Part shown: positions 17,536-48,362 of the stretch, one piece after another
Layout: the number at the start of each line of letters is the position of its first letter
Numbering within the stretch: the first letter of the stretch is position 1
Origin: Gemmatimonadota bacterium
GTDB taxonomy: Bacteria; Gemmatimonadota; Gemmatimonadetes; Longimicrobiales; Gaopeijiaceae
DNA length: 64,000 nt
NCBI GenBank assembly: GCA_034521595.1
Contig: JAXHMG010000003.1
Location: 1,472,001 to 1,536,000 of the forward strand
Direction of reading: 5' to 3'
Notes under the pieces: generated by a model
Told to the model about the DNA's origin: nothing
Database searches by the model: none
Seen by the model: only the letters and a program-made list of their open reading frames with translations
Made by a program: the position numbers and the translations under genes

Positions 17536-17552
17536 ACCCGCGGCAGCCGCAG

Positions 17553-24846: not shown

Positions 24847-27987
<3,141 letters not shown>

Positions 27988-28030
27988 CGCTCTCCATCCC
28001 TCGAAAGCAAGGGGGACGTCCACGGAATCG

Positions 28031-29359
28031 TCACGAAGCGCTCGCCTCGACAAGCTCTTCCGCCACCGGCACCCGGATCTCCCCCGATATCAGCCTGGGA
28101 AGCAGTGTATCACGCAGAGCTGCAAGCACGCGGGAACTCCGCAGCCCTGGGTAGTGCTGGAACGAGCGGACCCGTGAACGCGCCAAAGGCCACGGCGACG
28201 CGCTCGTCTGAGAGGTAGGGCCAGGCGGTAATGTTCCAAGCGGTAATGGGTTCGGCTGCCTTCCACTCGAGCCGGTCATGCTCCTAATCGCAAATTGACG
28301 GAACGGCTCGTGGCGGGCCAGGCAATAGGCGAAGTGCTTCTCGGGAAGCGGGGGCTTCGGTCGGAGCACGATGTACTCCGTGGAGCCCCATCCGACCTGG
28401 CCATCCGCAAGATAGATCAACGTAAGCAGTCTTTCCGTTTTCCCAGACGCGGAGTGATACGTGCCATGAGGAGTATCACCGATTCAGCGAAACGCTCACA
28501 CGGGGAGCCATCAGGCCCGCTCCCCCATAGAGTCTGGGGTGTGGCCCTTGGTGGGCATGCTTGCCGTCGGCAGATACGGGGGCGGAGATCCCTCTGGACA
28601 AGCGGCGGGTAGGGTTGATGTCGATCACGTCTTTCAGACCAACGACTTCCCACCCCTCAGGCACTTTCCCCAATTCCGAATCCACCATCCGGTCCGGAAA
28701 TAGGTCGTACCAATGCTCAGGGAACCCCGGCAAGGACTCTCCTGGCTGCCACCGCCCTTCGATCTTCGGCGCGCACCGGCTCGAAGTCTACGAACCATGA
28801 CTTGAAGAGCGTGTGCGTCATTGCCTTCAAGCGTCTCCCATCCTGCGGGTCAGCTCAATCTTGTCGTCGAGCGTCCCGAGCACGTCGGCAATGTCACGCT
28901 GTTCGGAGACGGGAGGTAGCGTGACGATGAGATGATCCAATCAGGTCGACGGGACACGTTGCCGACCCGACGAGCCCGTCATCTGGCTAATCGCGTACGC
29001 CCTCACCTCACTCCACTGAGCCAGGTAGTAGGCGAAACCGGTGTCGCTCACGCCGGGGCGGCCGCGGATGACAATGAACTCCGTCGATCCATGGGCCCCC
29101 TCCGCACCACGTGAGTCGCGGTAGCGCGCGATCTTGCCGTTCTCAAGACACGGTGTGATTCGCGCCATCAGAACGTCGCCGTCTTGAAACCGGGCACCAC
29201 CGCCAGTGAACTCACGGCACTCAGGGGCGACAACGGTCCTTATGCCGGGCTCCACGGCTCCCATGTCTACGAAGGGGAAAGGTCGACCGCGCTCAAGCGT
29301 CACCGGAGGATTTATCTGAACCGCCTGACTTAGGGCAATTCCCGCCACTCGTCACGCAT
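28031..29359 (-). CDS. hsdS: Type I specificity subunit S (frameshifted)
   Basis: Two TRDs with ARITP..ENGK and GSTE(F/Y)[12 protein letters not shown] and [16 protein letters not shown] conserved regions. Confidence 0.88.
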
Positions 29360-30929
29360 ACCCAAGCCTCTCCAGATTCGCGGCGATGGCGTCGTCGAGG
29401 CCTGCAGCTTCAACTAGCTGCTGCTGCCGTTCCGCCACAAGATCCTCCATCTTCTGCTCGAACGGCTCGTCATCCTCCTCCAGGGCCTCGGTCCCCACAT
29501 AGCGACCGGGCGTCAGTTCATGGTTGTGTCTGCGGATCTCCTCAAGTGGCACACTCTTACAAAATCCCGGCACGTCATCGTACTCGCCGGCGCCCCTCTC
29601 ACCCCTCCAGGCGTGATATACATCGGCGATCTGTGTGATGTCCTCGCTCATCAGTTCCCGGTGGGTGCGATCCACCATCGTGCCCATCCTCCGGGCGTCG
29701 ATGAAGAGCACCTCTCCCCGCCGATCGCGGTATTTCCCATTGTTGCGGTCACGAGCAAGGAACCACAGGCAGACGGGGACCTGCGTTGAGTAGAACAACT
29801 GCCCCGGAAGCGCGACCATGCAATCCACTAAGTCCGCCTCCACGAGATTTTTCCGGATCTCACCCTCGCCCAGCTGCTGGGAGCTCATGGATCCCTTCGC
29901 CAGGACGAACCCCGCGGTGCCACGTGGGCGCGAGGTGATGCACGATGTGCTGGACCCAGGCGAAGTTGGCGTTGCCGGCCGGCGGGATCCCGAACTTCCA
30001 GCGCCTGTCGTCCTTCAGCCGCTCTCCACCCCAGTCACTGATGTTGAAGGGCGGGTTTGCGAGGATGTAGTCGGCCTTCAGGTCGGGGTGACGATCGTTG
30101 TGGAACGTGTCGCCGTGGTGCGATCTGACCCTCGATGCCACGGATCGCCAGGTTCATCTTGGCGAGCCGCCAGGTCGTGTAGTTCGACTCCTGGCCGTAG
30201 ATCGAGATGCTGGAGCGGGCCTTCCGCCATTGCCGTTGCCGTTCTGGTGCGCCCGGATGAACTCCACCGACTGTACGAACATCCCCGAGGAGCCGCAGCA
30301 CGGGTCGTAGACTCGGCCCTCGAAGCGGTTCCAGCATCTCGACCAGCAAGGGCGACGACGCAGCGAGGCGTGTAGAACTCACCGCCCTTCTTGCCTTCGG
30401 CGCTGGCGAACTGGGACAGGAAGTACTCGTAGACGCGGCCGAGCACGTCCTTTGGCCCTCGCCGACTCGCTCCCAACGCTCGATGTTGCTGATCAGGTCG
30501 ATGAGCTGGCCCAGCCGGGTCTTGTCGAGCGCCGGGCGGGCGTAGTCCTTCGGTAGCACACCCTTCAGCGGACGGGTTGTCGCGCTCGATGGCCGCCATC
30601 GCGTCGTCGACGAGCTGGCCGATGGTCGGCTGCTTGCGCTTGGTTCTTGAGGTGCGGCCCACCGCGCCTCGGGCGGCACCCAGAAGACGTTCGCGGCACG
30701 GTACTCGTCGGGATCCTCCGGATCCGCGCCCTGATCCTGCTCGTCGGTCAGCCGCGCCGTGTAGCTCCTCGAAGGCATCCGAGATGTACTTGAGAAAGAT
30801 CAGGCCGAGGACGACGTGCTTGTACTCAGCCGCGTCCATCGAGCCCCGAAGGGCGTCGGCCATCTTCCAGAGTTCGGCCTCATATCCGACGTTCGCGGCG
30901 CTATCGCTCGAAGTCTTGTTCTTCGTCAC
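29352..30929 (-). CDS. hsdM: Type I methyltransferase subunit M (frameshifted)
   Basis: [62 protein letters not shown]. Confidence 0.92.
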
Positions 30930-31293
30930 GGGATCTTTTGCTGGCGGGATGTGAGGAGGAGGTCGAAGATGGAAGCGCCCTCGTCGTGGATGGGTTCGGG
31001 ACGGAAGGTCCACCGAAAGCCCACCGGAGGCAAGGTATCCGGGTGGTTCAGCGGGAAGCGATCCGGACTCCGGTAACCGGGTCAACCTCCGATTGCCACG
31101 GGGTCACCGACCACCACCATGTCTTCGTTCTCTCGCACATCGGTCACCACCTCCGATGGCCCGCTCGCACCCTACCTTTCGCGAATCAGTTGCCCGGCGG
31201 AGTAATGCACGAGTCCTAGTCCAGTGGCTAGTCAGAACCCCAGGCGTCTGTTGCCGGCGCCGTGAATCTGTCCTACCAAGACGCGAGTCAATT

Positions 31294-32580
31294 TTATCCT
31301 CGTGCCCTTTGGCAGCTCGTCGACACACGGCATCGCACCGTTGGCACAACCCTCCACCTCCACTCACGCCCTCCTTCCACGGGCATCTGCGCGGCGCGGA
31401 GCTCGCGTTCCAACTCCCTGCGCCAACGGTCATCGTCGCTCATCTCGATATAGACGATTCCGTCAAAATCTGACGGGGCCTCCAACCTAGGACTCACGAG
31501 CGCGCACACCCTGGGTTGACCGAGATGGGCGAGGAAGTAACCGAGTTCGAGGATGACGTTCTGACGCGCCCTTGGCGCGAGCTCACCTGCCGCCGCTCCA
31601 CCCCGATCGTCACCCGTCATGACAATCACGGCGAAAGTGACTAGCTCCGCTTCTTCGATGAACTTGGTAAGTAGTACGGCGCCCCATGTTCGGCTGATCA
31701 TGGAGGACGATCGGATCCAAACCGAGCTCGACCAGAAAGTCGACAACTTCGGTTCGCGCTTTCTTCGTCCCGTCCGTGCACGACGAAGACACGGCGTGGA
31801 TGGCGCGTTTCTTCGAAGGCATCGGGAGGTGGGCCAGGACTCGCTCCGGCTTATGGCCTCTTCGTCCACGGACACGCGGTCAGCGGCATCTGGTCCAGAA
31901 AAGGCCCTTCTAACCAGGAACGCCGACAGCAACGAGCTCTCAGCCGTAACCGCCCCCGGGTTCTTCAGTGCAAATCTGATAATCTGGTTAGCACGGTCCC
32001 GGCGACTACCAAGCTCCCGACCAGCCTCCAGTTCGGTCACCCCAGCCTCTGAGCAGGAGATCGTCAATCTCCGTGTGACTCCAATCGGATATGACATTCC
32101 GGACTCGAATCAGGTCATTCCGAGGCGGTGTTGGTAGCCCCCGCGGAGTGAATCGCCCGAGCAGTTGAGTACTGACGTCAACGCCTCCCTGGGCCAAGAC
32201 GGCTAAGAGGTCGCCGCGTTTGACAGCCCAGTGATGTCGGCTGAACTCAAACTGTTCGATATCGAGGTGACCGCGGAGGCGCCAGATCGCGTCGTTGGTT
32301 AGCGGCTCGGGGCTAAGATCCTCAGAGACGGAAACCACGATATCACTGCCTGTACGGCGGATGGACTCGATCTCAACAAGGTACGCTCGCTCATCCGCAC
32401 GCCCCTCTTGCATAAGAAGGCAGGGCCAGGACTGGATAGACCTGCATCGCCTCGGAAGAGCGGCTTCGAAGTTGATCGGAAATGACCCGGACCGTGCTAC
32501 TCGAGAAACCGGGAGGGCTCGACGGTGACGAAATGTTCGTCGAGTTGCGCTACGTCGTTCGAGACTATCAGGTTGTACAT
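31294..32580 (-). CDS. TIR-like nucleotide-binding domain protein with uncharacterised N-terminal domains (frameshifted)
   Basis: C-terminal FAVIVMTGDD...RARQNVILELGYF...PSDFDGIVYI matches the CAP12/Pycsar-type TIR family; start MYNLIVS at 32580. Confidence 0.8.
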
Positions 32581-33030
32581 GCGGGCAGCTTACGGTCCCG
32601 TCACTGCCGCGGAAAGAGTCGGGTCCCAGGATAGCACGGGCGCCCAACCTCACTCGAATGAGGCACGTCGGTGACCGCGGGTGGCGTCACAAGGACCGTA
32701 GCCCGGGCGTCGGCGATCGCTGACCTGACCCCAGGGCCACTACCGGGAACTCTGCTGACATCGGGCTCTTGAACACTGATTCTCGGCCCGAACTCTACCC
32801 ACAATCTCACCCCCATACGGGAAGATCCGACGCGCAGAATCAGGCCGATTGACCTTCTTCGCAGGGAGAGACCGTATCTCGACCCGCAGCAGGCTCCTGG
32901 ATGCGGTCGCCACTTCTGAATTGCCGTGGCCCGGGTGAGCGCAAGAAAACCAGCGCTACTCCCAACAAGCTTCCCGTGCCTCAAGATCAAGACCAGCCGA
33001 TCGAGGATACGCTGCCTCGCGTCCGCTCTG

Positions 33031-33086
33031 GGCCATGTGGGGGAAGCGAACGAAGTGAGCGGAGCCGGAAACATACTTGTTATGTG
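33031..33086. repeat. attC-like hairpin repeat A (right arm only)
   Basis: GGCCATGT..GCGAACGAAGTGAGCGGAGCCGGAAACATACTTGTTATGTG, closely similar to the right arm of repeat C. Confidence 0.7.
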
Positions 33087-33294
33087 ATGGGTGCCGCTGT
33101 CCGTCGACATCAGTCACGTCTTGGGGTCAGTCCGCTCTTGCCATGGATCCTTCGCCGCGTCCATGATGCTCGGGTGAAGATCAAAGACATTATCCGTGTC
33201 AACGCCGGTTCAGAAGTGGACAGATCCGACGGAGTAGAGTTTGACACTTCCGGGTCGGGTTGGTTGGTCATCGGGGCATGAGGTTTCTCCTGGC

Positions 33295-34078
33295 TCAGGG
33301 GTGAGGGGACGGCGAGGCCGGCGTTTCTTCGGTGGCGGAGCCGGTAGCTTTCGCCGCGGATGTTGAGGGTGGTGGCATGGTGGAGTAGACGGTCGAGGAG
33401 AGCGATGGCGAGGACGGGATCGGGGAAGATCTCGTCCCATTGGCCGAAGCTCTTGTTGGAGGTGAGGATGATGGACTTCTGGGCCTGGTAGCGCTTGTTG
33501 ACGACCTCGAAGAGGAACGTGGCGTCGTGCTGCTCGAGGGGCAGATACCCGACCTCGTCGAGGATCGAGGACCTTGGGCCGGATCAGGACACGAAGCAGG
33601 ACAGTCGAGCCGGTTCTTCTCGCGATGGGCTCGGGAGCGGGTCACGAGGTCATGGAGCGTGAGGAAGTAGATGCGGTGCCCCTGCTCGATGGCCTTGAGC
33701 GAGAGGCCGATCGCCGAGGTGCGTCTTGCCGACACCGCTGGGTCCGAGGAGCAAGACGTTCTCGCCCTGATGCAGGAAGCGCAGCGTGGCGAGCTCGGCG
33801 ACGACGTCCTTGGGCACCTGAGGCTGAGCCTCGTAGTCGAAGTCTTCGAGCGTCTTGGGCGCCGGGCAGGCCGCTGAGCTTGAGGTTGGTGTTCACCCGC
33901 CGCTCGAAGCGAGCGGCGAGCTCGATGCGTGAGGAGCTCGTCGAGGACCTCGACCGGCGAGCTTCTCGCTCTTCTGGCCCCGCTCCAGGATCTCGATCGA
34001 GAGCCGTGAGCGCGGCTTCCAGCTTCGAGTTGATCGAGCTGGTCGCGGACCCGCTCGTAGCTGACCGCGCGCACTCAT
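33295..34078 (-). CDS. istB: IS21 helper ATPase (frameshifted)
   Basis: YERVRDQL.., GPSGVGKT region, DEVGYL, TSNKSF, AILDRLLHH across frames. Confidence 0.85.
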
Positions 34079-35408
34079 GAGGCGCCCCCGCGAGCAACGC
34101 GCTCATAGGCATCGAGCGCGCCTGGATCTCACGACGGGCGCGACCTGCTTGAGGCGATCGAGTCGACCGACGAGCCGAGCTCGGCCGCCGCGACGCGCTG
34201 CATCGAAGCGAGGCGGGCCGCCTCGTCGTCCGCACGCCTTCTGAGTCCACTGCCACGTGTGAGCTGGCGGATCGCCTTCGGCGTGCTCGGCGAGCGTGCA
34301 CGGCCGGCTCCCGGAGGTCGGACGCGATGCCGACCAGGAGCTCGGTCGCCGAGGTAGACGGCGAAGCACGTCCGTCGCTCCTCGGCGGCCGCACCATCAC
34401 CGTGTGGCCGCAGCCGCGGGTCGGGCACGCTGTAGCGCACGCCTCGGAAGCTGAAGTGAGCAGTCGGCGGCCACCTTACGGAGCTCGACGGGCCGCATGT
34501 CGTAGGCCGGCACCGCGCTCGCTCGCCGGAGCTCGGGCAAGCTCGACGACGGTGGCGATCCAGCCGGCCGCTCGCCCGTGGTGCCGTGCACCCGGACGTT
34601 CGCGACCGTGTCGAGCCAGTGCTCGAGCTGACGGTTCAGATCCTCGAGATCGGTGAAGTGAGCGGCCCTCGAGGAACGATTGCTTCACGTAGCCGACGCC
34701 CCGCTCGACCTTGCCCTTCACCCGCGGCCAGTACGGTGGACTCGCCACCGGCAGCACCTCGTAGTGCTCGCACGAAGTCCAGGAACGTGGCGTTCCAGCG
34801 CACCGTGCCCGTCGTCACGTCGTGCTGGTCGACCGCCTGCTTCATGTTGTCGACCAGCAGCTCGCGCGGGCACGCCCAGGCGCTCGAACGCCTCCTTCAT
34901 GCACGCCAGCAGGGTCGGCCGCTTCATCGACGTCGTGAAGCGCGCATACATCCGGCGGCTGTAGCCCAGAACCAAGATGAACACGCACAGCTTCTTCGTT
35001 CGCCGACCCTGCTCGATCGTACCGCACTCGCCCCAGTCGATCTGGGCCTGCCGGCCGGGCAGCGTCTCGAAGCGCTCCATCGACCCGACGCGCATGAACT
35101 CTGCCTTCAGCGGCCGCATGAAGTCGCGGAGGATCGTGAGCCCACCCTCGTAGCCGAGCCCCTCGAGCTCTCGCTTCAGCACCGTGGCCGGCAGGTCGAA
35201 GCGCCTCCAGGCGAGCCCGGATGTAGTCCTTGTACGGATCGAGCTTCGAAGCCCGCCCGGCCCGGGGCTTCGGATACGGCTCGGTCCGGTTCAGATGGTT
35301 GTAAACCGTCTGGCGCGTCACGCCCTGAGCGGCGCGCGATCTCGGCTGATCGTCACGCCCTCTTCGGCCAAAGAATTTGATCTGCATGTGCTTCTCCCGT
35401 AGCATCAT
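34076..35408 (-). CDS. istA: IS21 transposase (frameshifted)
   Basis: SKLDPYKDYI, RFETLPGRQAQIDWGE, LGYSRRMY, KGKVERGVGYVK. Confidence 0.88.
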
Positions 35409-36686
35409 CTGTCTCGAAGTCCTCCGGCGCGTGGGGCCGATCCTTGGTCGGACGACCCCAACCTAGCGCGCCAGAGGGCTTCTTTTTGGGTGAGGGGTTC
35501 CGGGGCCCTCTCCTCGCGCCTGCGGCGCTCGGGGCCCACGGCTCCCGCGGCTACGGAAGTGTCAAATTCTCAACCGTCGCTTCTGTCCAAGATCAAACCG
35601 GTGGGGACATCCGTGCGGCCCCAACCTTCTTCCGAGCGGCTTGGAACTGGTTCAGCCACTTCGATACCCTGATGTCGCTCTGGGCTGGCTCGGGAGTGCA
35701 TCCGCCCTGATTGCAGCCTTCTCTGCAGTGGTGGGTTGGATCGTAGCGCGACTCGCTTCGTTCGGACCGGTCCTCAGCTTCTTCCTCGCGCTAATCGCAT
35801 GGGTCTTGGTGTCTGTCGCCTTGGCGCTGAATCGATGGGTTCCAGGTTGGAATGCCCGCTCCCGAAGAGAAGGGGCCGTCCGAGCCTCTCGGGACCAGTG
35901 AGGAGTCTCCGACGGAACTCGTCTTCCACCTGCAGTCTCCGACCGAGACGTTTGACCTACGGATCGCTGGAGCCTTTCCGGGAAAGCTGGGCCTGATCGA
36001 GATCGCGAATCCGACCGAAGCCGTTGAGCGTCTCGGCGCGCTTCTCCTACCGACCGTATTCCGCCGGAATGACCTCTCTCATGACCCGATCTGGTGGTTT
36101 CGTGGCCATTCGAGCCAGTCCGTCGAGACGTTTCGTGATCTCGAAGGCGGCAGGTGCCTCCTCAATCACATGGAACTCACCTTACGGCGCGTCGTCGCAT
36201 ACCGCTCGATCGATACGGCCCACCAATTCGTCTATGTAGAGTGCGACCCTGATCCACCTGTTGGTTCGGATCCCCACTCGCTCCGTAGCCTTGAAGAAAG
36301 GGTCGCGGAACGCGGTTACGCGGCCGAGGAGTACGGCCTCTTTCGGGGCATGCCGTCACTCGGATGGAGTACGATGACGCTGCAGCCGTGGATTAACGGG
36401 AAGCTGTAGATTTCACCACGACGTCAGACCGAGCAGAGGTCAGGCGTCGGTTTCCTTACGAGGTTCAACTTCATCATCTGCGCGAAGTTCCATCCGCTGA
36501 AATCGGAACGCCCTGGATCAATCCGATGGAGGATATCCCGAATGCGATCCTCCGGGGTGGGGCGACTGTTGAAGATCTAGTCGAGCACATCCGGCAACTT
36601 CCGGCGCATCCAGGGGATGGAATGCACCTGGCCTAATCGCTCAGAAGCGAGACCAAGGAACCGATCCATCACCTGAAGGCACCTTT

Positions 36687-36840
36687 CACATAACGTTCAG
36701 ACGTTTCCGACGTGGCCACCACGGAAGCGCCCACGCTACCTACCCGAGCATACGCTGCGATCTGCTCTCGTGCCACAAAACTCCGAGGCCATGTAGGTGA
36801 AGAGAGCGAAGCGAACGGAACCGGAAACGTTCTGTCATGC
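36687..36840. repeat. attC-like hairpin repeat B
   Basis: CACATAAC-GTTCAG-ACGTTTCCG-ACGTGGCC...GGCCATGT...CGGAAACGT-TCT-GTCATGC. Confidence 0.75.
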
Positions 36841-36959
36841 AGACGCTCTGGGCCCCGCTGTGCTGAGGAACCGTGGGAGTCTAGTACACCTGCGCTGTCT
36901 GGCCTTACGGGGAGAGTATCGAGCCCCGATGGTCCGGATGAATCGATCGGCGAAGTCCC

Positions 36960-37630
36960 CAATTCCACCGGCTCGCCAAGGTTGCCAAGCCCGTCGCTGT
37001 GTCTTCCAGCTAAGGCAAACGCTGTGATGGGAATGGCCAGCGTGAGCATAACGATTCCGTTGCGCACCCCGGAGAAGCTGACCGAAAGAGCGTTTGACCG
37101 AAGATTTGTCACTTTCTGATTCTGTTCAACATAGTAGAGTCGCCTCGCTCGCGCCCTCGATTCCATCCTTAATGACGATCTCTTCGTTGAGCGCAGGTTG
37201 ATACGTCCGAGCGACTTTCATTGCCTCCAACGCCCACCAGCCAGCTGCCAGCAGGTAGATCGCGCCCAGATAGCAGGACCACGGCGACAGCCACCGCTCG
37301 GCGATCACTCGGAAGACCGAAGAAGTTGACGCTGGCAGACAAGATCGCGAAGGAAAGAGTCACCCCAATGATGTTGCTCTTAGCCTTGTCTTCGATGGAT
37401 CGTCGCCGTTCCAGCTCAATACCTTCAAAGAATCGGAGGCGGTCCTCATCGACCGCACTCGCCGTCTGTCGAAGCTCCTTCAGGTGGCAGGAGAACGCGT
37501 CGTCTCGATCCTCCAAGTCCTTAAGGATGGCTTTCCGAGCATTTCTAGCGGCCGGGATATCCAACAGAAAGCACACGGCTCATGCGAGTCACCATCGAGG
37601 AGAGCCGTCCCCCACGGTGATTATCCACGA
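36960..37630 (-). CDS. Membrane protein downstream of the ATP-grasp gene (frameshifted, ends approximate)
   Basis: RRRSIEDKAKSNIIGVTLSFAIL, LGAIYLLAAGWWAL, VRNGIVMLTLAI hydrophobic segments. Confidence 0.5.
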
Positions 37631-38567
37631 ATGAGAGCTCGTGCCAGAGTCAGGGATATCTCAAGGTCGAGAGCGGACTCCAGCCACACCCACTCTCCGA
37701 GAGGGTTGACCTCCAAGAAGAGGTATTCGCCGTCCCGCTCCATCAGGTCTATCGCCCCATATATCGAGCCCCAGGCGGTCCATCAGTCGAAGGCATCCAT
37801 CGACGACTTCGGTAGGCAATGTGGTCAGTCTATAAGACACGTCACCCTTGCGGAGCCGCCAGTCGCCGTCAATCGACTCGCCGTTGTCCGTGATCGCCAC
37901 CGCCCACCAGGTTGAGCCCACGATCGTAAGGCGAACGTCCACCTTTGGCTGGACACCTTCCTGTAGGACGTACGGCATCTACCGAGTTGCGGGCCTGAGC
38001 CTTGAATGCTTCAGCGCTCATCAGTGTCGTGTAGCCGAAATGGACGTCCGCATCGTCCTCCCAGAGCACGGTGTCCAATCCCTTTACGGCTACGCGCCCG
38101 GCACCAGGAAAGTGGTCAAACGGCCAGTTGCCGATTCTCGTCCATGGGATTTGCAGCCCGGCCTCAACCGCGACCGCGAGCTGCTCAAGCTTGTCGTTCG
38201 GATCTGTAGATCGCGAACGGAGAGTTGATCCAATGCCCACCTGCGGCGACCAATGAGCGGAGCATCGTCTCCCAATGGAGATGTCTCAACTGACTCGGCC
38301 CGGGACTCCCATGCGTTCGAACATACGCAGGCCGCTTGCAGTAGACGGAGTGAGGACCGGACACCGTGAAGGCCTGTCCTGAGGACTCACCGAAGATTGT
38401 CTTGGCTACCGGGTCGACGCTGATCCGGACCGGAGATCCTCGGTATTCAGTCGTTGGTAGGAGGCGTCTAGGTCACGAAGGTGCCCAACGACCAAGTCAG
38501 CGCCGAAATCGAATCGCGACGTGATCAGCAGGATCGTGGGAGCCGAAGAGGAAATGTCGTTACTCAA
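37621..38567 (-). CDS. ATP-grasp ligase, RimK/MvdC-D-like RiPP maturase (frameshifted)
   Basis: ILLITSRFDFGADLV..YQRLNTEDL, DKLEQLAVAVEAGLQIPWTRIGN, QEGVQPKVDVRLTIVG, DWR, FLEVNPLGEW. Confidence 0.8.
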
Positions 38568-38776
38568 TATCCCTTCTGGTCCTCTCCGGTTTCGACGTCG
38601 TTCTTCTTCGTCTGGGGGCGGGGGCCTTCCGGCCGCCTCATCAGCAGTTCTCCCGATTCCGAGTGAACCCACGCGCCGATCTTCGGGTCATATGCTGCCC
38701 CCCTAGGTGTGGGATCGGATGCGGGGCGCGAGTTCCTGACTGCTCCTGCTATCAGCATGTGCTTAGACAGTTGCAT
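38564..38776 (-). CDS. Putative graspetide precursor peptide (70 aa)
   Basis: GGAGG RBS; C-terminal core TKKNDVETGEDQKG rich in T/K/D/E; stop overlaps the ATP-grasp start. Confidence 0.7.
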   Translation of the reverse strand: MQLSKHMLIAGAVRNSRPASDPTPRGAAYDPKIGAWVHSESGELLMRRPEGPRPQTKKNDVETGEDQKGY

Positions 38777-38869
38777 CGATCCTCCAGGACGTGATGACAT
38801 ACGACAAGACATGGGGCGGCACGAACACTATCCGTTTCTCTACAACAAGAGGGGTCCAGAGTGTCTCAT

Positions 38870-40368
38870 AGACACGATGGAAGGGCTGGCCTCCTGGTTT
38901 TTTCGTGGATTAGCATCCCGAAGTAGCCCGGAGTGCCAGAGCCACCTGCGGCGTTCGAGCCGCACAGCCCAGGAGACCAGCCCATGTCTGCGCCAATCTT
39001 CTTCGTCGGCCTCGACGTGCACAAGGACACGGTGACGGTCGCGGTGTTTCGCAACCGCGATGTGGAGCCGATGCGGGTCGATCGACTTCCCCACGACCAC
39101 AAGAAGCTGCGTCGCTACTTCCAGCGTCTCGAGGCCGAGGGCTCGAGTCCGAGCCTGCTACGAAGCCTCCGGGGCGGGCTACGTGCTGCAGCGCGCGCTC
39201 ACCGAGTGGGGCATCGCCTGCGAGCTCGCCGCTCCGTCCCTCATTCCGAGGCGAGCGCGGTGAGCACCGCAAGACCGATCGACGCGATGCGATCGAGATC
39301 GCCCGGGACTTTCGCGACGATCGCCGCGTGCTCATCCACATCCCCACCGAAGCCGACGAGCGCGTCCGCGACTTGGTGCGCTGCCGCGAGACCTTCCAGC
39401 GCGAGATCGTCAAGTCACGCCATTACATCCTGAAGTTCCTGCGCCGCCGAGGCTTCATCTACCGCGACGGCACGCACTGGACCACGCGCCACATGAACTG
39501 GATCCGACAGGTGCTCGAGCCCGGCACCCTCGCCGAGGAGGACGGCGTCGTGCTCGCCGAGTACCTTGCGCTCCTCGAGTACGAGTTGCAGCGCAGAGAC
39601 GAGCTCGACCGCAGGATCGAGGCCCTGGCGCTCACGCCCCGCTACAAGCCCCTCGTCGACCGTATCCGCTGCTTCCGGGGCTTCAAGACCCAGGCGGCCA
39701 TGGTGCTCGCCACCGAGATCGGCGACGTGCGTCGCTTCGAGAGTCCGCGCCAGCTCATGGCCTATCTCGGACTCGTGCCCGGCGAGAACTCCTCGGGCGA
39801 TCGAAGGCGACTCGGGGCCATCACCAAAGCCGGCAACGCACGCGTGCGTCATGTGCTCATCCAGGCCGCCTGGCAGTACCGACGACGGCCTGCCGTCGGT
39901 GTCACCCTCCGGCGTCGTCAGCAAGGTCAGGACCCGGCCGTCATCGCCCATGCCTGGAAGTGTCAGGACCGTCTCTACAAGGTCTTCCACCGCCTGGCCG
40001 CCAAGAAGCCCAAGCCCGTCGCCGCCACGGCCGTCGCACGTGAGATGGTCGGCTTCCTGTGGGCCGTGCTCAACGACATCGATGTCGCCCAACTCCAGGA
40101 CGCGGAGGTGAGCCGAGCCGCCTGACCCCGATCCTGACACTTCACGTCCGGAAGGAGAGCGCCCGGGGCACGATAGGAGAACGCCTCGAAACGTTATGGG
40201 GTCCGGCTCCGTGCCCAATCCCCGCACATAGACTCCGGCCAGCTCCCGACGAATCCGTCTCATGATGCTCTGAGCCTCAACGCTCAACCATCGAATATCA
40301 GCAGGATGCATCGTCGAAGACGCCCCGGCCTCTCCTTCGGACCGCGACTTGACAACACCCTTCCATAT
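38870..40368 (+). mobile_element. IS110-family (IS1111-type) element
   Basis: Subterminal IRs ATGGAAGGG (38877-38885) / CCCTTCCAT (40358-40366); long 3' non-coding region; TTGACA at 40349; ends approximate. Confidence 0.8.
38984..40125 (+). CDS. IS110 transposase (frameshifted near the 5' end)
   Basis: FVGLDVHKD, CYEA, KTDRRDA, AYLGLVPGENSSG, GAITKAGN. Confidence 0.9.
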
Positions 40369-40421
40369 CAGGCGACCGGAACCGGGGCGTCCGTGGGCGT
40401 GGTGCGCCGGACCCGGAGCTC

Positions 40422-40793
40422 GTGGAGCGCCCTCGGCGTCGTACGTTCACGGCGGCCTACAAGCTCAAGATCGTGCAGGAAGCGGACGCGTGCGAGAAGC
40501 GGGGCGAGGTGGGCGCGTTGCTGCGTCGTGAGGGGCTCTACACGTCCCACCTCTCGGCGTGGCGCAAGGAGCGCGACAAGGGAGCGCTCCAGGCGCTGTC
40601 GAAGCCTCGGGGTCGGCCGAAGCCGGATCCACGCGACGGCGAGATCGAGCGGCTGCGCCGGCGTGCGGAGCGAGCCGAAGCCGAGCTGGCCACGGCCCAC
40701 AAGGTCATCGAGGTGCAGGGAAACGTCTCGGCGCTCTTGGAAGAGCTGCTCCAGGCTGGGGGCGCGAAGCAGAACGGGAGCAGCGAGCGGTGA
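40422..40793 (+). CDS. IS3 OrfA (5' part probably missing)
   Basis: RRRTFTAAYKLKIVQEAD..GALLRREGLYTSHL. Confidence 0.85.
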   Translation: MERPRRRTFTAAYKLKIVQEADACEKRGEVGALLRREGLYTSHLSAWRKERDKGALQALSKPRGRPKPDPRDGEIERLRRRAERAEAELATAHKVIEVQGNVSALLEELLQAGGAKQNGSSER

Positions 40794-41794
40794 CGGAGCA
40801 GGCCGTGGAAGAGCTCACGCCACTGATCGGGACGAGTCCGGCGTGCCGGGCCCTCGGGACGGCACGGGCGACGATCTACCGGCGTCGGCGTCCACCCGAG
40901 CCCCGGCCCCGGAAGCCTCGGCCGAAGCCGGCGCGGGCGCTCTCGGAACAGGAGCGCGACGCGGTGCTCGAAGCGCTGCACTCCGAGCGCTTCGTCGATG
41001 CCTCACCGGCACAGGTCTGGGCCACGCTGCTCGATGAAGGCCGTTACCTGGCGTCGGAGCGCACGATGTACCGCCTCCTGGCCGAGCAGAGCGGGAGCCG
41101 GGAGCGGCGCGACCAGTTGGTCCATCCGGCCTATGCCAAGCCGGAGTTGCTGGCCACGCGGCCCAACGAGCTCTGGAGCTGGGACATCACCAAGCTCCTG
41201 GGGCCGGCCAAGTGGACCTACTTCTACCTCTACGTCATCCTGGACGTCTTCAGCCGCTACGTCGTGGGCTGGACGATCCAGCACCGTGAGTCGGCCTCCG
41301 TGGCCCAGCAGCTCATCGCCCAGAGCATCGAGCAGCAGGACGTCGGGGCCGGCGAGCTCACGATCCACGCCGACCGCGGCACCTCGATGCGCTCGAAGCC
41401 GGTCGCGTTCCTGCTCGCCGACCTCGGCGTCACGAAGACGCACTCGAGGCCCTACACCTCGACGGACAACCCCTACTCCGAGGCCCAGTTCAAGACGCTC
41501 AAGTACCGGCCCGACTTCCCCCACCGCTTCGCCTCGATCCTGCACGCGAGGTCCTGGGCCCGGGGCTTCTTCGCCTGGTACAACCATGAGCACCGCCACT
41601 CCGGCCTTGGCCTCATGACCCCGACCACGGTCCACTACGGCCGGGCCGACGAGGTCAGGGAACAGCGTGGTGAGGTGCTCGAGGCCGCCTACGCGGCCAA
41701 CCCCGAACGCTTCGTGCGCGGGCTACCCCAGCCGCCCAAGTCGCCCACCGCAGCTTGGATCAACCCACCCGCCACCGAGGAGGATGCTCACTAA
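40790..41794 (+). CDS. IS3 OrfB DDE transposase
   Basis: WSWDITKL, LDVFSRYVVGW, HADRG, DNPYSEAQFKTLKY; uninterrupted. Confidence 0.92.
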   Translation: MTEQAVEELTPLIGTSPACRALGTARATIYRRRRPPEPRPRKPRPKPARALSEQERDAVLEALHSERFVDASPAQVWATLLDEGRYLASERTMYRLLAEQSGSRERRDQLVHPAYAKPELLATRPNELWSWDITKLLGPAKWTYFYLYVILDVFSRYVVGWTIQHRESASVAQQLIAQSIEQQDVGAGELTIHADRGTSMRSKPVAFLLADLGVTKTHSRPYTSTDNPYSEAQFKTLKYRPDFPHRFASILHARSWARGFFAWYNHEHRHSGLGLMTPTTVHYGRADEVREQRGEVLEAAYAANPERFVRGLPQPPKSPTAAWINPPATEEDAH

Positions 41795-42149
41795 TATCAG
41801 ACCACCTTCTGTCTCATCGGCGTTGACAGGTTCCGCTTCACGCTAGATACGTACGGATGCTTCGGCCCAGAACTGAAACAGAAAAAGCGACGGGCCGCGC
41901 CCGCCGCCACCCTATCCGTCCGCGGTCTTGCTTCGGTCCTTCTTAATGGTGTTATGAGTCGTTGCAGGCACGGTCGTCGTCACCGTACCGCTACCCCTTC
42001 TTTGGCTCGTTGGTCGTATACTGTCCCACGATCGACGGCACCTCTCCTGGTACGGCGCTCCAGATCCTCCCCTTCGCTCGATCAGGTCTGAGAACAGGGC
42101 AACTGTGTCGAGATGAATACCTCTTTCGCTCTCCTCCTTACGGCGGCTA

Positions 42150-42937
42150 AGCCAATTACCTTCTCCTGGCCCTCCGTGCGATAGCGTTCAATCGCATCGG
42201 GTGACTAGCTGATCGGCAGGATCGGAGCTTCGGCTCTGCAGGGACTCCCGAAGTTTGTGATGCACGACGGCCAGCCCGGCAACGTACTCACGGATCAGCG
42301 GTACTCAGATCGACCACCTCCCCAAGATCGGCCAGTTCATCGAGAACGTTCGACTGAAGCCTCCATCCTCCCGGAGACGCTCGGTATCGATGCTCGGTAC
42401 TATTGCATTTCGGCGGGTCGAGCCTTCTTCAAGTCGGTCGCGCCAGAACTGATGGGACATGCGCACCGCACCGCAACTCCCCGGGTGCTGCGTGTAGTTC
42501 CGAAGGGCCTCCATCGCCCGGTATCCGAGACGGGAGTCATACTCGATGGATCGCCATGCGTTGAACCGGGCAAGACCGGTCCGAGTCTTTGCCGAATCGG
42601 CAGCTGAGTAGGTGACGGCGCCTGATCCAGGTATCCTCTTCCACCCGAAAGGAGGTTCACGACTCTTCGGTCGACATCGTGGATGGTTCCGACCGCACTC
42701 GGACCAAGACCCCTCTGTACAGAGGAGTGAATACAACGCCCGATCGAGCAGGGCACCTTCGTACTCATAGAAGTTTGCCAGGACGAGATGGAAGCCTTCT
42801 TCCAAAGCGAGGGCGTCCACCAGTAGACCCTTGGCGTCCTTCAGCTCCTGGAAGTCGCTCCGATCAAGCGGGAGGAATGGTGTCTTCCCGAAGACGGCGA
42901 TCTGACCAGAGCCGTGTCCGACCTGATCATCGTTCAT
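42150..42937 (-). CDS. Cassette-borne hypothetical protein with RxxxxH (HEPN-like) motif (frameshifted, end uncertain)
   Basis: DRRVVNLLS and YRAMEALRNYTQH; flanked by 18-bp inverted cassette ends. Confidence 0.5.
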
Positions 42938-43020
42938 ACGGAAATCTGGATTGCTGCGTTTACCAAGAGAGAAGAGGAGGGACACCCCCCCGACGTCGCG
43001 CGAGATCCAGCCTGCAATGA

Positions 43021-43140
43021 CTCATAACGAATCAGGGGTTTCCGAACTTGCGGCCTGGCGCGGCTCGTCGCGCTCGCACGAGACGTGACAGGGCGGAAGT
43101 CAGGCCGGAGGGGCCCCGGAGCCGGGAACCCTCACAGTGG
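43021..43140. repeat. attC-like hairpin repeat E (divergent)
   Basis: CTCATAAC-GAATCAG-GGGTTTCCG...CAGGCCGGAG..CGGAGC-CGGGAACCC; same layout as B/C/D with a degenerate right core. Confidence 0.55.
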
Positions 43141-43179
43141 AGGGCTGAAATCGCGCCCCGACCCGTGACCATCCGTCCT

Positions 43180-43900
43180 ATCGGGACCCATCCCAAGTGC
43201 GGGCTTTACGGATGCGCGTTCGAATCCTTCTCGGCAGTAGCGGGTCTCCCGCATCCAACCGGTACTTTCGCGAAAGTAATTCTCAGCGACGTTCTCCTGC
43301 CTTGCCTGCTTCCCCCAGTCGCACCAAAACAGGAGACAAACGATCTAAGATCCGGATGTCTCCCGAGATACCTCGTCTCCACGCAACTCTTGGAGGAGCT
43401 CACCGACAAAACCCTCCCTCCCGCTGTATCCCCGCATACTCATCAATCGTCCTGCAGAGCCTCTTCTATGTACATCCGAGCTGCCGCACGCACACTCCGT
43501 CTTCTCTAGAGACTTCGCCCGATCAGCAGCAGCGCTGAGACTCATTTCTCAGCTTCCAGAATCTTTGGTTAGCTTCATAGTCTATCACCCTCCCGAAATT
43601 GATCCAGTTTACCAAACTCTCATTTTCCCGCGCCATCCAGCGGGCCTCAAGGTCCTCTGCACCTTCCTCATCGAGATCGTCAGCCAAGATGAGAACCTTG
43701 TACTCGTCGTCGAGATGCCTCTTCACGTAGAATTCCCAGAGCTCATGCCCATTCTTCTCCCACGCACGGCGCCCCTTGCCCTTCCCGACGTAGAAGATCT
43801 CGCCATCGCGATCCACATGCGCGTACACGTAGAACCGACGCGGATTCGTTCGATCGGCCTCGTCGGATGGTGTCAGCCTCTGAGGCGAAGTGGAGTCACT
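43180..43900 (-). CDS. GIY-YIG nuclease-domain protein (frameshifted C-terminus, ends approximate)
   Basis: FYVYAHVD..IFYVGKGKGRR..E..N motif set. Confidence 0.75.
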
Positions 43901-43980
43901 GAGTGACAGAGCGATACCGCGATTGGTAAAATGAAACAGCAGCTCGTTATGTGGCGTGCTGCACTTGGTCCATGACGCCA

Positions 43981-45069
43981 CTACTGCTCGGGGTAAACAC
44001 CCAACAACGCGGCGACGCTTGCTTTCCACTCCTCTCGGCACCCCCTCATCGCGACAGTAGCTCCGAAAGCGACTTCAATTTGTGTTGAAGAGGGGTGAAC
44101 GAGGTTCGCTCGACGTTGAATATCGGTGACCGCCTCTAGATCAGCGCTGAACCCAGTCGATGGACAGTACGCGATCCTCACCGGTTTCGATGAGGTGGTA
44201 CCTTCTGGAAACGACCGCCCTTCGCTCTGTCTACAATCAGCAGAGGACCACGAGGCCGACGCCCTTCTACGTCTGCGGCGGCGAGCAACGCGGTTCCCAT
44301 CACGGGAACTAAGGTCATGAGGCCCAACCGGAGATAGATCGGGGTCATCTGCCGATGCTCCATCGAAGACCTCCTTCGGGTAGCATCCAGTAACATCCGC
44401 CATCTCCCCTTCGGGGATGGCCGCTCGGGCGAACCGACCGCCTGCCGCCGGCCAGGCGTCTGATTAGAGCGATCGCAATCGCCGCGCAACGATCCAGATT
44501 CTCTTCAGGATAGTCACTGACGACGAGGAAGCCGTCGCCAAACTGATGCGCGAAGAGCCGCTCCCGTTCCTTCGGAAACACACGACGACCGATGCGGGCG
44601 ATGGCAGCCATGAGTTCGCCAATCGCCTGCACGTGGTCCCGCGACGATCGCTGCTTGAAGCCCTGAACGTCGATGTACAGTGACGATCGGTCGTCAGCGG
44701 AAGCAACCGTCGCTCCGAAAGGAGAGCCTCTCCGCCCTTTGCCACTGATCTCGCTCGCCAAACCCATCCTGTGGAGAGCCAGAAGCAGAACCGTGCAATT
44801 GCAGTTGTGGCCTCTCTGGCTGCGGTACCGAACACCTCGGGCGACATACTCCTTGAGATCCGTGGTCGCGGACGTACCGTCCGGCGGAATGCTGAAACGC
44901 ATGATAGAGAGCTTCCACACCAACGTAGAACCGCGAGTGGCCACGTTGGTAGCAGAGCCGTCGGTCGTCGGACGAGACGATCTTGGTGGTGCCGCCGCCT
45001 GGATTCTCAAGGAGCGTGCCCTGGGGGCACGCTGTCGCCCAGCCTGTGCGAGAACTGAGTAAAATCCAT
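43981..45069 (-). CDS. Class III nucleotidyl-cyclase-like protein (frameshifted)
   Basis: YIDVQGF, QFGDGFLVV and VMGTALLAAA correspond to the two metal Asp motifs and the G..N.AA region of class III cyclases. Confidence 0.5.
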
Positions 45070-45129
45070 GGAGATCGGCGCCGCCTCCCGATAGAGCTTC
45101 CAACTCACGGCACCTCGTTCCTAGCATGC

Positions 45130-45287
45130 CACATAACGTTCAGATGTTTCCGACGTGGCCACAGCATATGCGCTCATCTTTCCTGGGCCTTCGGAGTGCA
45201 GCTGACAGCATACGATATCAGCACGTTCGAGGCCATGTAGGTCGGAGCGAACGAAGTGAGCGGAGCCGGAAACATTCTTGTTATGTG
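45130..45287. repeat. attC-like hairpin repeat C
   Basis: CACATAAC-GTTCAG-ATGTTTCCG-ACGTGGCC...GGCCATGT...CGGAAACAT-TCTT-GTTATGTG. Confidence 0.8.
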
Positions 45288-45335
45288 ATGGCCTTTCGCT
45301 GTTTCCCTACACCGATTCGCACTCTTGGGCAGCGG

Positions 45336-46533
45336 TCAGCTTCGGGCAAGTTCGTAGATCCGAGCGTACTCGACCTCAAGTTCGTCCCGCCAGACCCCGA
45401 CCACTTGGTCCCCCAGGATCTGAGTCGGGCGGAGCCGCTGATCGGGAAACTCGACGGTGCCGAGCCAGACTCCTTCACGATCGAAGACAGCCCAAGAACG
45501 AGCATCACCATCGTACGAAAAGTCCTGGACCCAAAGGAACCCCTCACTGTCGACAAGGAACCTCGAGTAGGCCGGTCGGCTCTGAGGTTGCGGCTGCTCT
45601 TGGTAACGGGCCCGAAGACCAGGTCGAGCGCCTTCTGGAGCTGCGAGCACTCGTGCCTCAACAGCGGCGTCGTAGGACACCTCATCCAATCGGACGTCGA
45701 CATCCGATCTGCGGATCAGACTTCGGAGGATACCGTCCTCAGAATAGACGCCGATCTGGTATGCATCTTGAGAACCCTGAAGGATCTCCTCACCCCGGAC
45801 TGCGTGACTCACCGACCGGGCCAAGAGAGGACGGAGCATCTCCACAGTCTGAGGGCCGTACATCAGGATCCGTTCCGAGCCCGGAGTCACGAGGACCGTG
45901 TCTTCCAGCGCTCCGGAGTGGGTCGATCCGGACGTAGGCTGCTCCGAACCTAGTCGGAGACCGGCGGGCAACTCGTCGATGATCGCCGACGAGAATGCGA
46001 GGTGCGCGGCCGGCGCGACGAGCCCCCGCGACGAGCCGACCGGACCAAGTCCTGCGTCGTCCACCGCAGCCCGGGCAACCCGAAACGGTCCGCTCTCGGG
46101 ATCCAAGACCGTGATCCTCTGCTGCGCGCCCGTCGAAGTCCCAGAGCGAGTCGGCGTTCAGCCCGATGGAAGGTCAGGCCCTGAAATTCCCCGGGCCCTT
46201 CGCCTGACCGACCGAACACGGAGATAGGGTTGCCAAGCAGGTTAAAAAGCTTGACCTGGCTGGCACCTTCGTCGAGCACGGCGATCCTCTCGCCGTGAGA
46301 ACGAAGACGCCCGAGAGCCGGTCGAACGCCGCATCGCCGTCCAGGCTACCCAGGCTCAGAACCGGATCCTGAGATACCTGCCATACCTCATGATCATTCC
46401 AAGCGGGACGACTGTTCTGCACGATCCGAATGCCGGCGCTGTCTTGGACGGCAACTGCAACGGGAGGAACTTCGTCAGACCCGCAGGCCGTGCAGATCAG
46501 AAGACAACCCAAGAGCGCTAGTCTCACCCGCAC
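45336..46533 (-). CDS. 6-bladed beta-propeller lipoprotein (frameshifted)
   Basis: Lipobox CTAC; DSAGIRIVQN, FGRSGEGPGEF, VDSEGFLWV, FDREGVWLG, DELEVEY. Confidence 0.8.
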
Positions 46534-46560
46534 GTTCTCCTCCGTCCAAAGAATGGCTTT

Positions 46561-46721
46561 CACATAACGTTCAGATGTTGCCGACGTGGCCCACCACCGC
46601 TCCCTCCGGAGCCGGCCACCCGTCATGAATACGGCTTAGGCGCTCAACCCGCCACACCCGTTCCGGGCCATGTAGGCCGGAGCGCCCGCAGGGCGCGGAG
46701 CCGGCAACATACTTGTTAGCA
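46561..46721. repeat. attC-like hairpin repeat D
   Basis: CACATAAC-GTTCAG-ATGTTGCCG-ACGTGGCC...GGCCATGT...CGGCAACAT-ACTT-GTTAGCA. Confidence 0.8.
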
Positions 46722-47429
46722 GATGTTGGCTTCCTGTGGTCCACGCCACACTTACGGTTGACTTCACGAGGGACGTCGCGTCGACGGCTATCCGTCCCGG
46801 TGGTTCGACCTGAAACGGAAACCCCGCGGACACACGGTCGAGGGATCGCGCGAAGGAAGCCCAAGGAGCGAGCAGACCGAAGGTGTGGCCCCAGTCGACC
46901 GATGATGCCTCGGAGCGGGTCAACGCGCGATTCACCAAAACCTCTTTGGCGCCGTCGACGAAGAACCCGCCGGGTGGACATCGCAGTCGTGGATCGAGCC
47001 CGCCCGACCGTGTGGAGCCACACGGGGGGAGGGACAGCGGCGAATCCATAGGGTGGTGGGCGTGACTCGAGCCGAAGGTGCGAACCCCAGTCGACCGTAG
47101 ATGCCTGGGAGGATGTCAACGCACGAGGAGTTGAAGGCGTCGCCGCTGTCCTCGAACCTGACCGTCCATGGCCAATGTCCGCTAACTGGTTGTTGCCGCA
47201 GAAGTGTGTCGCTTCTGCTCCTCGTCCTAGGCGGGATTCCCGACGTTGAGGATCTGGGGCTGGAGCGTCTGAGTAAGTTACCTCCGGTCTCCGCAACGTT
47301 CGCTCCCCCTCGGCGGAGCGCAAGGTAATCGCTCGGCGAAGGATCCGGGTGAGTCGGCGGGCGAGTCACGGCCTCCATCCGGTCGGCTGACGGTGGACTG
47401 GACCACGACCACACGTACGTCGAGACCTT

Positions 47430-48144: not shown

Positions 48145-48324
48145 GAGTCTCCTTCTCGGCACGGCCCATCGAGCCGCGCCCAAAATGGGGTGAGAACGGA
48201 GTGAGTTTGGCTTCGCTGGGGCAGCGGATCCAGGTTTCCGGACTTCGCCATCGGTACCGGAAAGGCATGAAACGACAAGACTTCCGGCACGCCGACAGCG
48301 AAATGCCGTACCCCCGCTGGCGGC

Positions 48325-48362
48325 TTTTAAGTCCCCTGCGTATACCATTTCGCCACCCCGGC
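48325..48362. repeat. att core direct repeat, copy 2 (orphan 5' half of tRNA-Leu)
   Basis: Identical to 17598-17635; identity stops at the anticodon loop. Confidence 0.95.

Follow-up and report, generated by a model that had tools for sequence, protein, structure and literature searches.

The stretch of DNA considered here, hereafter the window, is 64,000 nt long (G000:C3:1472001-1536000) and belongs to the genome of a soil-type Gemmatimonadota bacterium, G000, assembled to 3.49 Mb in three contigs and 93% complete. Toward its middle, five related repeats, designated A to E, stand among open reading frames (ORFs) and insertion sequences (ISs), and the row of repeats is closed on the right by an attI-like region. 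A preliminary description, made from the DNA letters, had reported five such repeats with a shared layout, and all five were recovered in place. The full copies, B, C, and D, span 157-164 nt and display that layout, which consists of CATAAC, 6 nt, a 9-bp arm, ACGTGGCC, a variable part, GGCCATGT, a side element, the second 9-bp arm, 4 nt, and GTTA. The three arm variants that had been described as covarying are each present, with pairing kept. With good probability, the repeats are attC-type sites of an integron-like gene-cassette system in this chromosome, for which an enzyme of 399 amino acids (aa), encoded elsewhere on contig C3, serves as recombinase.

Site family and folded structure

Copies of the site were located by motif scans and with R1, a covariance model built from 21 full genome copies, and were counted at E <= 0.001. 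The genome contains 26 copies at this threshold, to which site E is added at E 0.004, and a 29-nt pattern from the left end of the site has 22 genome matches as opposed to 0 for the reversed control. ATAAC/GTTAT cores occur in the 21 full copies, and site length in the family is 157-166 nt. The copies form one large array, referred to as the main array, and four small clusters (Table 1). Orientation is identical for every copy on contig C3, an integrase is adjacent, and dispersal of the kind seen for repetitive extragenic palindromic (REP) elements or miniature inverted-repeat transposable elements (MITEs) is not observed. The pair of copies at the start of contig C1 is probably a continuation of the main array that was broken by assembly. 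The main array also holds a site-free stretch of 12.5 kb (G000:C3:1686-14263). As a separate observation, the 'variable' cores of the 21 sites (columns 33-114 of alignment A1) fall into about four conserved subtypes, one of which bears the motif GTCATGAATACGGCTTAG; conserved core subtypes are unusual for attC loops. A scan of the window against Rfam returned a tRNA as its sole match.

In single-stranded form, the site would fold into an outer stem of 5-7 bp (ATAAC/GTTAT), an asymmetric internal loop of 6 and 4 nt, a fully paired 9-bp stem, and a three-way junction, from which a small side hairpin, with a 6-bp stem and a G-N-A loop, and an 8-bp distal stem capped by the variable part would branch off. 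Pairing was counted in 39 copies from three genomes (G000 and loci L016, L017, L069, and L071). Standard pairs fill 92.5% of the pair cells, a share that drops to 30-42% if the partners are offset by 1-3 columns. Changes on both sides are seen at 24 of 28 pairs, and none of 500 shuffles reached the observed pairing values. A MAFFT alignment of the 21 genome copies reveals these covariations independently; pair 135-141 of the side hairpin, for instance, is AT, GC, or CG depending on the copy. Next to integrases of 43-64% identity, the architecture persists in copies whose stem sequences differ. The perfectly paired arm and the 6/4 spacers that the preliminary description had read from the window are thereby confirmed across the alignment of copies, and the distal part that it had described as branched takes the form of a three-way junction with a side hairpin, backed by covariation. 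The single-stranded DNA fold of site C has a z-score of -2.6.

In 20 of the 21 copies, a C-G pair closes the G-N-A loop of the side hairpin; loops of this kind form DNA mini-hairpins of unusual stability. Of the 39 copies, 35 retain a G-T wobble in the distal stem, where the opposite strand would have a C-A mismatch. Folding energies were tried as a guide to the reactive strand and set aside, as the energies of the two strands do not identify it. The assignment of the reactive strand is instead made by analogy with canonical attC sites. On the integrase-sense strand, the side hairpin appears to occupy the position of a canonical extrahelical base, on the same side and after the ninth pair; this correspondence is drawn from one canonical locus, L094, and general attC anatomy.

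Signs of cassette exchange and the array-linked integrase

If the sites delimit exchangeable cassettes, the bases outside the cores would be expected to record it. The six bases beyond each GTT are the reverse complement of the bases beyond the AAC of the next site. Of 13 main-array junctions, 9 match at 6/6 positions and the other 4 at 5/6, whereas in none of 20 cases do the two ends of one and the same site match at 6/6. Because the first two of the six positions hardly vary, the signal is carried by about four positions. Within the window, the A-to-B and C-to-D junctions match at 6/6, and B-to-C, which contains site E and two IS elements, matches at 4/6. Where the fifth base of the core varies (GTTAG, GTTAA), it tracks the neighboring site, which places the exchange point inside GTTA. 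Strand exchange would then occur inside the conserved GTTA/TAAC, and a cassette would consist of a minus-strand gene followed by its site.

A cassette found in two contexts bears directly on this polarity. Site D and the 463 bp to its right (46558-47186) recur at C3:31915-32543 with 93.5% identity (blastn), and the homology of the two copies stops exactly at the AAC of either border. The right border is formed by another site in the main array and by attI-like, non-repeat DNA in the window. The cassette therefore runs from minus-strand gene to site, and the right side of the array is proximal to the integrase. In the 13 inter-site units between C3:14425 and the attI junction, the longest ORFs lie mostly on the minus strand. 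Among ten main-array ORFs compared with Pfam, the minus strand has three solid matches, to a Phd/YefM antitoxin, a SnoaL-like protein, and a nucleotidyltransferase, and the plus strand has one solid match (a helix-turn-helix protein) and one weak match. The units are mostly one- or two-gene and consist largely of ORFans and toxin-antitoxin genes.

Four tyrosine recombinases are encoded in the genome: two Xer-like proteins, a 184-aa fragment at the tRNA end of the island that holds the window array, and the 399-aa protein. The gene for the latter (G000:C3:34259-35458, minus strand) reads toward the main array, and its product is the sole array-linked recombinase of the genome. At 231 bp from its stop codon sits TCCCATAAC, the partner of GTTATGGGA in the last site, beyond which follows non-repeat DNA with GTTTCCGA-type motifs resembling site arms. 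The region also shares the motif GTTTCCGACGT with the arms. Judged by its sequence, the TCCCATAAC region is an attI-like junction. The preliminary description had stated that no integron integrase was present and had raised the prospect of a different recombinase; the window is indeed devoid of an integron integrase, yet a dedicated recombinase exists elsewhere on the contig. It had also named two observations that would contradict it, namely scattered copies and a normal intI elsewhere in the genome. The copies lie in co-oriented arrays and small clusters, and the search of the host genome that it had called for found no normal intI, with 0 matches over the cut-off of TIGR02249 in a genome that is 93% complete.

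A canonical IntI was called where the TIGR02249 ('integron integrase') score exceeded the cut-off of 265 bits. The 399-aa protein scores 213.5 bits in two pieces, with model positions 175-234 unmatched, and reaches 210 bits with XerA_Arch against a cut-off of 220. Its best PDB match is VchIntIA (2a3v, E 6.4e-45), of which chain residues 173-239 stand opposite query residues 293-317 only, leaving about 42 residues missing relative to VchIntIA. At this place, the 399-aa protein and all relatives with the same N-terminal domain lack 41 residues that four canonical IntIs of the phylum possess (MAFFT). According to these alignments, the enzyme is without the IntI-specific insert, the I2 helix. The catalytic set R, K, H-x-x-R, H, and Y is retained across 24 orthologues. 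A quick tree separates XerC/D, with a support of 100, from a single group that unites the integrases with the N-terminal domain, canonical IntI, and IS91-associated enzymes. Branching within this IntI-like group does not resolve, and the tree is thus compatible with gain as well as loss of I2. A fold search with the whole integrase model retrieved recombinase cores only.

The first ~80 residues of the 399-aa protein form a conserved beta-beta-alpha-beta-beta-alpha-beta domain, modeled at a predicted local distance difference test (pLDDT) score of ~90 and followed by a variable linker. This domain is conserved in relatives down to 33% identity. Pfam HARP (PF07443) matches 11 of 23 such N-terminal domains at E <= 10, with a best E of 1.1e-4, and a profile of the domain finds the SMARCAL1 HARP domain (4o66) in PDB at E 2.3e-4. 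At E <= 0.001, the profile further recovers 3,435 proteins, of which many carry the domain in 2-4 tandem copies. The weak list returned by Foldseek includes XPB N-terminal domains, 4o66, and MutS, and a look-up in the ESM Atlas was uninformative (best 0.86). The N-terminal domain is probably HARP-like on the strength of these profile matches. HARP domains bind branched or fork DNA. The title of PDB 4o66 terms the HARP of SMARCAL1 a 'substrate recognition domain' (see also PMC9371921).

Related loci in other genomes were surveyed with R1, which was run on 47 and 80 loci with related integrases and on a sample of 151 genomes of the phylum. Two sampled genomes are flagged as unpublished, G097, which is among the 57 over the TIGR02249 cut-off, and G057, which is outside those 57. 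Under strict filters, R1 matched only in G000 and one family member among the 151 genomes; the model is too sequence-specific and thus unsuited to mapping the whole family. Orthologues of the 399-aa protein at 59-72% identity are numerous in Gemmatimonadota metagenomes. At L017, where the integrase is 61% identical, 11 R1 matches lie within 10 kb downstream of the gene, and matches are also present at L016, L102, L106, L114 (two), L117, L123, and L115, the last cut by a contig end. As in G000, each of the 19 matches at related loci lies on the downstream side of the integrase and on the strand opposite to it. Where the integrase match is full-length with at least 54% identity and at least 900 bp follow downstream, an R1 match is found at 4/4 loci. 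Of 17 contigs whose integrase is at least 51% identical, 13 stop no more than 410 bp past the gene, as expected if assemblies break in repeat arrays. The stretch from the integrase to the first cassette has blocks common to G000, L016, L017, and L102, and the attI boxes are partly shared by the latter three.

The sites vary among these relatives. Those of L114 and L117 bear two side hairpins, and L124 (12374-14412), whose integrase is 39% identical and also insert-less, has three sites with AAAC/GTTT cores and a single bulged T at the side-hairpin position. A generic hairpin scan at more distant loci (33-47% identity, at least 900 bp downstream) gave mixed results. The two-piece, insert-less integrase type occurs in G000, G116, and G086 among the 151 genomes, and 57 of the 151 have an IntI over the TIGR02249 cut-off. 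At the canonical locus L094, IntI reads toward an array of seven ordinary attC sites which, as read from their sequences, have 5- and 6-nt spacers and two extra L'' bases after 3 and 9 pairs. Among 16 loci, of which 14 carry a canonical IntI of the phylum and 2 are IS91-associated loci of Acidobacteriota, R1 found nothing below E 0.87. The latter two, L020 and L023, were considered as family members and dropped, since they place a 282-aa integrase beside an IS91-like transposase in an ordinary attC array. In this Acidobacteriota metagenome-assembled genome (L020, 9962-11947, and L023), the Xer-like integrase is followed by the transposase inside the arrays, and the pair may represent an IS91-type element that targets integron arrays. 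Gemmatimonadota are listed among integron-bearing phyla (PMC8618304).

The window array and its island

Read leftwards from its attI-like end, the window array comprises cassette D, cassette C, a 2-kb unit closed by the degenerate site E, a 6-kb stretch with rve-type and IS110-type transposase genes, site B, a 3.6-kb unit, and the truncated site A, which is the integrase-distal end (Table 1). The R1 match for site A covers 32958-33087 at 35.7 bits, the outer core of site B has decayed to GTC, and the match for site E is weak (20.1 bits, E 0.004).

Table 1. Features of the window array, its island, and the site copies elsewhere in the genome (window positions unless prefixed C3; blank cells, not given)
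Feature	Position	Strand	Remarks
Primase/helicase	20066-22318		split into two ORFs
Type I restriction-modification genes	25160-31085		hsdR in three pieces, hsdM in two
CAP12/Pycsar-effector-type TIR gene	31294-32097	-	Pfam E 1e-19; just beyond distal end of array
Site A, truncated attC-like site	33030-33087	+	right half only: GGCCATGT, side hairpin, arm CGGAAACAT, GTTATGTGA
A-B unit, 3.6 kb	33088-36685	-	contains 2.4-kb block 33197-35609
Site B, full attC-like site	36686-36842	+	arms ACGTTTCCG/CGGAAACGT; R1 133.7 bits
IS110-family transposase fragment, between B and E	39328-40125	+	Pfam Transposase_20, E 1e-20
Transposase with rve (integrase core) domain, second IS between B and E	40559-41794	+	Pfam rve, E 5.5e-22
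Site E, degenerate attC-like site	43021-43144	+	CATAAC, arms GGGTTTCCG/CGGGAACCC; GTT end lost
E-C unit	43145-45128	-	longest ORFs, minus strand: 43523-44041, 43981-44403, 44345-45127
Site C, intact attC-like site	45129-45288	+	R1 149.2 bits
Cassette body of site C	45289-46559	-	minus-strand ORFs 45336-46106, 46174-46626
Site D, intact attC-like site	46560-46723	+	arms ATGTTGCCG/CGGCAACAT; R1 158.2 bits
Body of integrase-proximal cassette (D)	46724-47186	-	with site D, copy of main-array cassette C3:31915-32543
attI-like region without integrase gene behind	47187-47330	-	box 1 TAACTGNTTNTTNCCG, box 2 TTNCCGACGTTGA, distal block
Main array	C3:1528-32696		16 copies, co-oriented
Copies at start of contig C1			2 copies, opposite orientation
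Cluster on C3	C3:1.014-1.025 Mb		3 copies
Single copy on C3	C3:1.4497 Mb		1 copy
Copies in the window			4 copies at E <= 0.001, plus E at E 0.004

Alignments of the sequence that follows TCCGCTAAC, on the right of cassette D, reveal three blocks in common with the main attI region. Box 1 occurs twice in the 3.49-Mb genome, in the window attI-like region and at the main attI, and box 2 occurs four times, two of these being at the window and main attI-like sites with equal spacing. The distal block, CAACGTTCGCT...GCGCAAG, is likewise common to both regions. The homology stops about where the integrase stop codon would fall, and tblastn found no integrase remnant behind the window attI-like region. 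With the attI boxes present and no integrase remnant, the window thus holds an attI-like region and cassettes minus the integrase, and the absence of an integron integrase from the window, as first reported, is borne out by the recombinase inventory and tblastn.

The array is partly eroded, as site A is truncated, site E is degenerate, and IS elements are inserted, so that only cassettes C and D look fully competent. The ~14 kb that the preliminary description had proposed as a swappable cargo platform are a partly eroded, IS-ridden array. The integrase, 1.47 Mb distant, could mobilize cassettes C and D in trans. The window cassette ORFs have almost no family matches in Pfam, NCBIfam, or PADLOC, and those of the E-C unit and cassette C body match no known family in these searches. 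The body of cassette D also holds a 42-nt direct repeat with 83% identity (46889-46930 and 47085-47126). In the A-B unit, the block 33197-35609 recurs at 89% identity within one main-array unit (blastn). It was considered as a duplicated cassette, an idea that was dropped given a weak IS21-type match (34842-35408, NCBIfam E 1.9e-5) and an end repeated at five loci; the block is probably a degraded IS. This end is a 59-nt stretch, 35551-35609, with matches of 85-94% at five other places on C3 (~328214, 330259, 1322720, 2458251, and 2832134), and it may mark the terminus of an IS or MITE. The remaining ORFs of the A-B unit have no Pfam match.

In Logan metagenome contigs (runs X1-X3, two studies), summed depth at 45033-45314 and 46443-46724 exceeds that of the flanking cassettes by a factor of tens to hundreds, and the contigs diverge at the edges of sites C and D. 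This suggests that the site family is abundant and has many different neighbors in those communities.

The array lies on a 30.7-kb island bounded by a tRNA-Leu(TAA) gene (17552-17635, minus strand) and a 95% copy of its first 44 nt (48319-48362). The island thus seems to be bounded by the duplicated 5' part of a tRNA, not the usual 3' part. Besides the array, it contains the integrase fragment, a split P4-type primase, broken type I restriction-modification genes, the TIR-domain gene, and an 89-aa terminase-small-subunit-like fragment (phrog_51, E 1e-7). The split primase and broken restriction-modification genes indicate that the island is decaying. The preliminary description had termed it a phage satellite, a view that holds only in part: the integrase fragment, the split primase, and the terminase-like fragment agree with it, but many of the genes are broken, and satellite-like but decaying is a fair description.

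Alternatives and relation to known systems

In the integron-like system favored here, the 399-aa enzyme would be the recombinase, reading into the 16-site main array across an attI homologous to that of the window. Recombination would act on the single-stranded, folded site, in which the side hairpin would mark the reactive strand and could be read by the HARP-like domain. The preliminary description had offered either a divergent cluster of attC sites lacking integron integrase (CALIN) or a cassette system with a different recombinase. Both parts hold, as the window is an integrase-less, non-canonical attC-like cluster and the array-linked recombinase falls under the TIGR02249 cut-off and is without I2.

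The leading alternative is an ordinary CALIN, in which the sites are normal attC, the canonical IntI is gone or hidden in the 7% of the genome that was not assembled, and the 399-aa recombinase is a bystander. The AAC/GTT cores and the cassette logic are as in attC, canonical IntI is common in the phylum (57/151 genomes over the cut-off), and the genome is only 93% complete. Nevertheless, this explanation is unlikely. No canonical IntI was found in G000, the adjacency and polarity of integrase and array recur beside integrases of 43-64% identity in genomes and metagenomes, and the attI-like region bears the site-arm motif GTTTCCGACGT. Moreover, the inspected canonical locus (L094) has different, ordinary attC sites, and R1 has no match beside the canonical IntIs searched.

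It is also conceivable that another enzyme, the host XerC/XerD pair or some other factor, recombines the sites while the adjacent integrase is otherwise employed. Xer/dif modules use 28-bp dif-like sites composed of two 11-bp arms and a 6-bp spacer. The genome encodes two Xer-type recombinases, and Xer acts on folded single-stranded phage DNA (PMC3442271). A role for these enzymes is nonetheless quite improbable, since the sites are hairpins of 157-166 nt and not 28-bp dif-like, a comparison made with no dedicated dif search, and since a dedicated, conserved integrase and its own attI-like site flank the arrays. A reading of the repeats as structured intergenic elements of the REP or MITE type, without a cassette role, is scarcely credible, for although they are intergenic, palindromic, and multi-copy with variable cores in few conserved subtypes, they are clustered and co-oriented instead of dispersed, no target-site duplications were seen, and neighbor-matching outer bases and a core-bounded cassette in two contexts would be unexpected.

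Several points weigh against attributing these arrays to the 399-aa enzyme as an integron-like recombinase. We infer recombination itself from sequence, and the link between integrase and sites is drawn from their conserved adjacency. The main array is cut by contig ends and the genome is 93% complete, so a canonical intI could lie in the unsampled part. No interpretable excision joint was found in the metagenome contigs, where the short 'joints' have sides of <31 nt, and the generic hairpin scan found no convincing site at L110, L111, or L125. With respect to structure, the 39-copy alignment was fitted to the model, which favors the structure, single-copy fold z-scores are modest (-2.6 and -2.4), and the plus strand is more stable in only 8/21 copies by minimum free energy and 4/21 by ensemble energy. 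Pfam HARP does not match the N-terminal domain of G000 itself (alignment member 1), and Foldseek against PDB returned nothing for this domain at E <= 0.001, with 4o66 ranked 13th at E 0.21. Finally, the non-canonical status of the sites is set by structural features, and they might pass as attC under the IntegronFinder model.

Taken as an integron-like system, the arrays and their putative enzyme would work like an integron yet lack two defining features, the IntI insert and the extrahelical bases. Canonical attC sites carry extrahelical bases in the L box and unpaired central spacers of 5 and 6 nt (in part after PMC2727003). The I2 helix has been treated as the innovation that enabled recombination of folded, single-stranded attC (PMC4792948; PMC7790495; IntegronFinder 2.0 preprint), and the preprint on IntegronFinder 2.0 uses the extra domain to separate IntI from other integrases. 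No paper found in the literature search ties I2-less integrases to cassette arrays; supplementary files, which lay outside that search, might list such loci. Detection tools require the I2 segment. A conserved integrase-attI-array system without I2 would mean that integron-type gene capture is broader than current tools report and that many 'CALINs' may possess an unrecognized cognate enzyme. It would also represent a second structural solution to reading a folded site. An array with an attI and no integrase on a tRNA-inserted island is, in addition, a possible route for whole cassette sets between genomes.

More tentatively, the loci may belong to a widespread, undescribed integron-like branch in which folded sites are recognized by a HARP-like, junction-binding domain together with the side hairpin (in some relatives, a bulged T) in place of I2 and extrahelical bases. 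Such a branch, which is possible but doubtful at present, may preserve or have reinvented a pre-I2 state of integrons. If true, the origin of single-strand recombination by integron integrases would become directly testable.

Among known systems, the N-terminal domain is closest to HARP of SMARCAL1, in that its 75 residues have weak, repeated sequence matches and the same beta-beta-alpha repeat pattern. In contrast to SMARCAL1, the domain is fused here to a tyrosine recombinase and not to an SNF2 motor, and the structural similarity is non-significant. For the enzyme as a whole, the 'integron-like' subgroup of simple tyrosine recombinases offers a fitting class, as the IntI insertion is reported to be not fully conserved in this subgroup, yet essential for integron function (Smyshlyaev et al., 2021; PMC8138268). 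Such a description suits an insert-less, IntI-like enzyme. However, the available part of that paper ties no insert-less members to arrays, whereas here an array adjoins the gene.

CALINs are clusters of attC sites lacking an integron integrase (Cury et al., 2016; PMC4889954). The window cluster resembles them in having no nearby integrase in a genome with a larger array elsewhere. With three full and two degraded sites and no integrase nearby, it counts as a CALIN (at least 2 clustered attC sites, no integrase nearby) only if its sites count as attC. It differs in that the sites are non-canonical and the cluster retains a recognizable attI-like end.

The closest overall likeness is to sedentary chromosomal integrons, the group with an integrase reading toward the array that is exemplified by VchIntIA/VCR. 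In both cases, an integrase adjoins an attI-like site and an array of co-oriented, imperfectly palindromic sites with AAC...GTT cores, each site is chimeric with its neighbor, and the sites are homogeneous within a genome. Secondary integrase-less clusters are also shared, and VchIntIA is the closest solved relative of the 399-aa enzyme. Unlike these integrons, the enzyme here is without I2, falls below the TIGR02249 cut-off, and carries an N-terminal HARP-like domain, and its putative sites have no extrahelical bases in the 9-bp stem, 6/4 instead of 5/6 spacers, and a side hairpin on a three-way junction.

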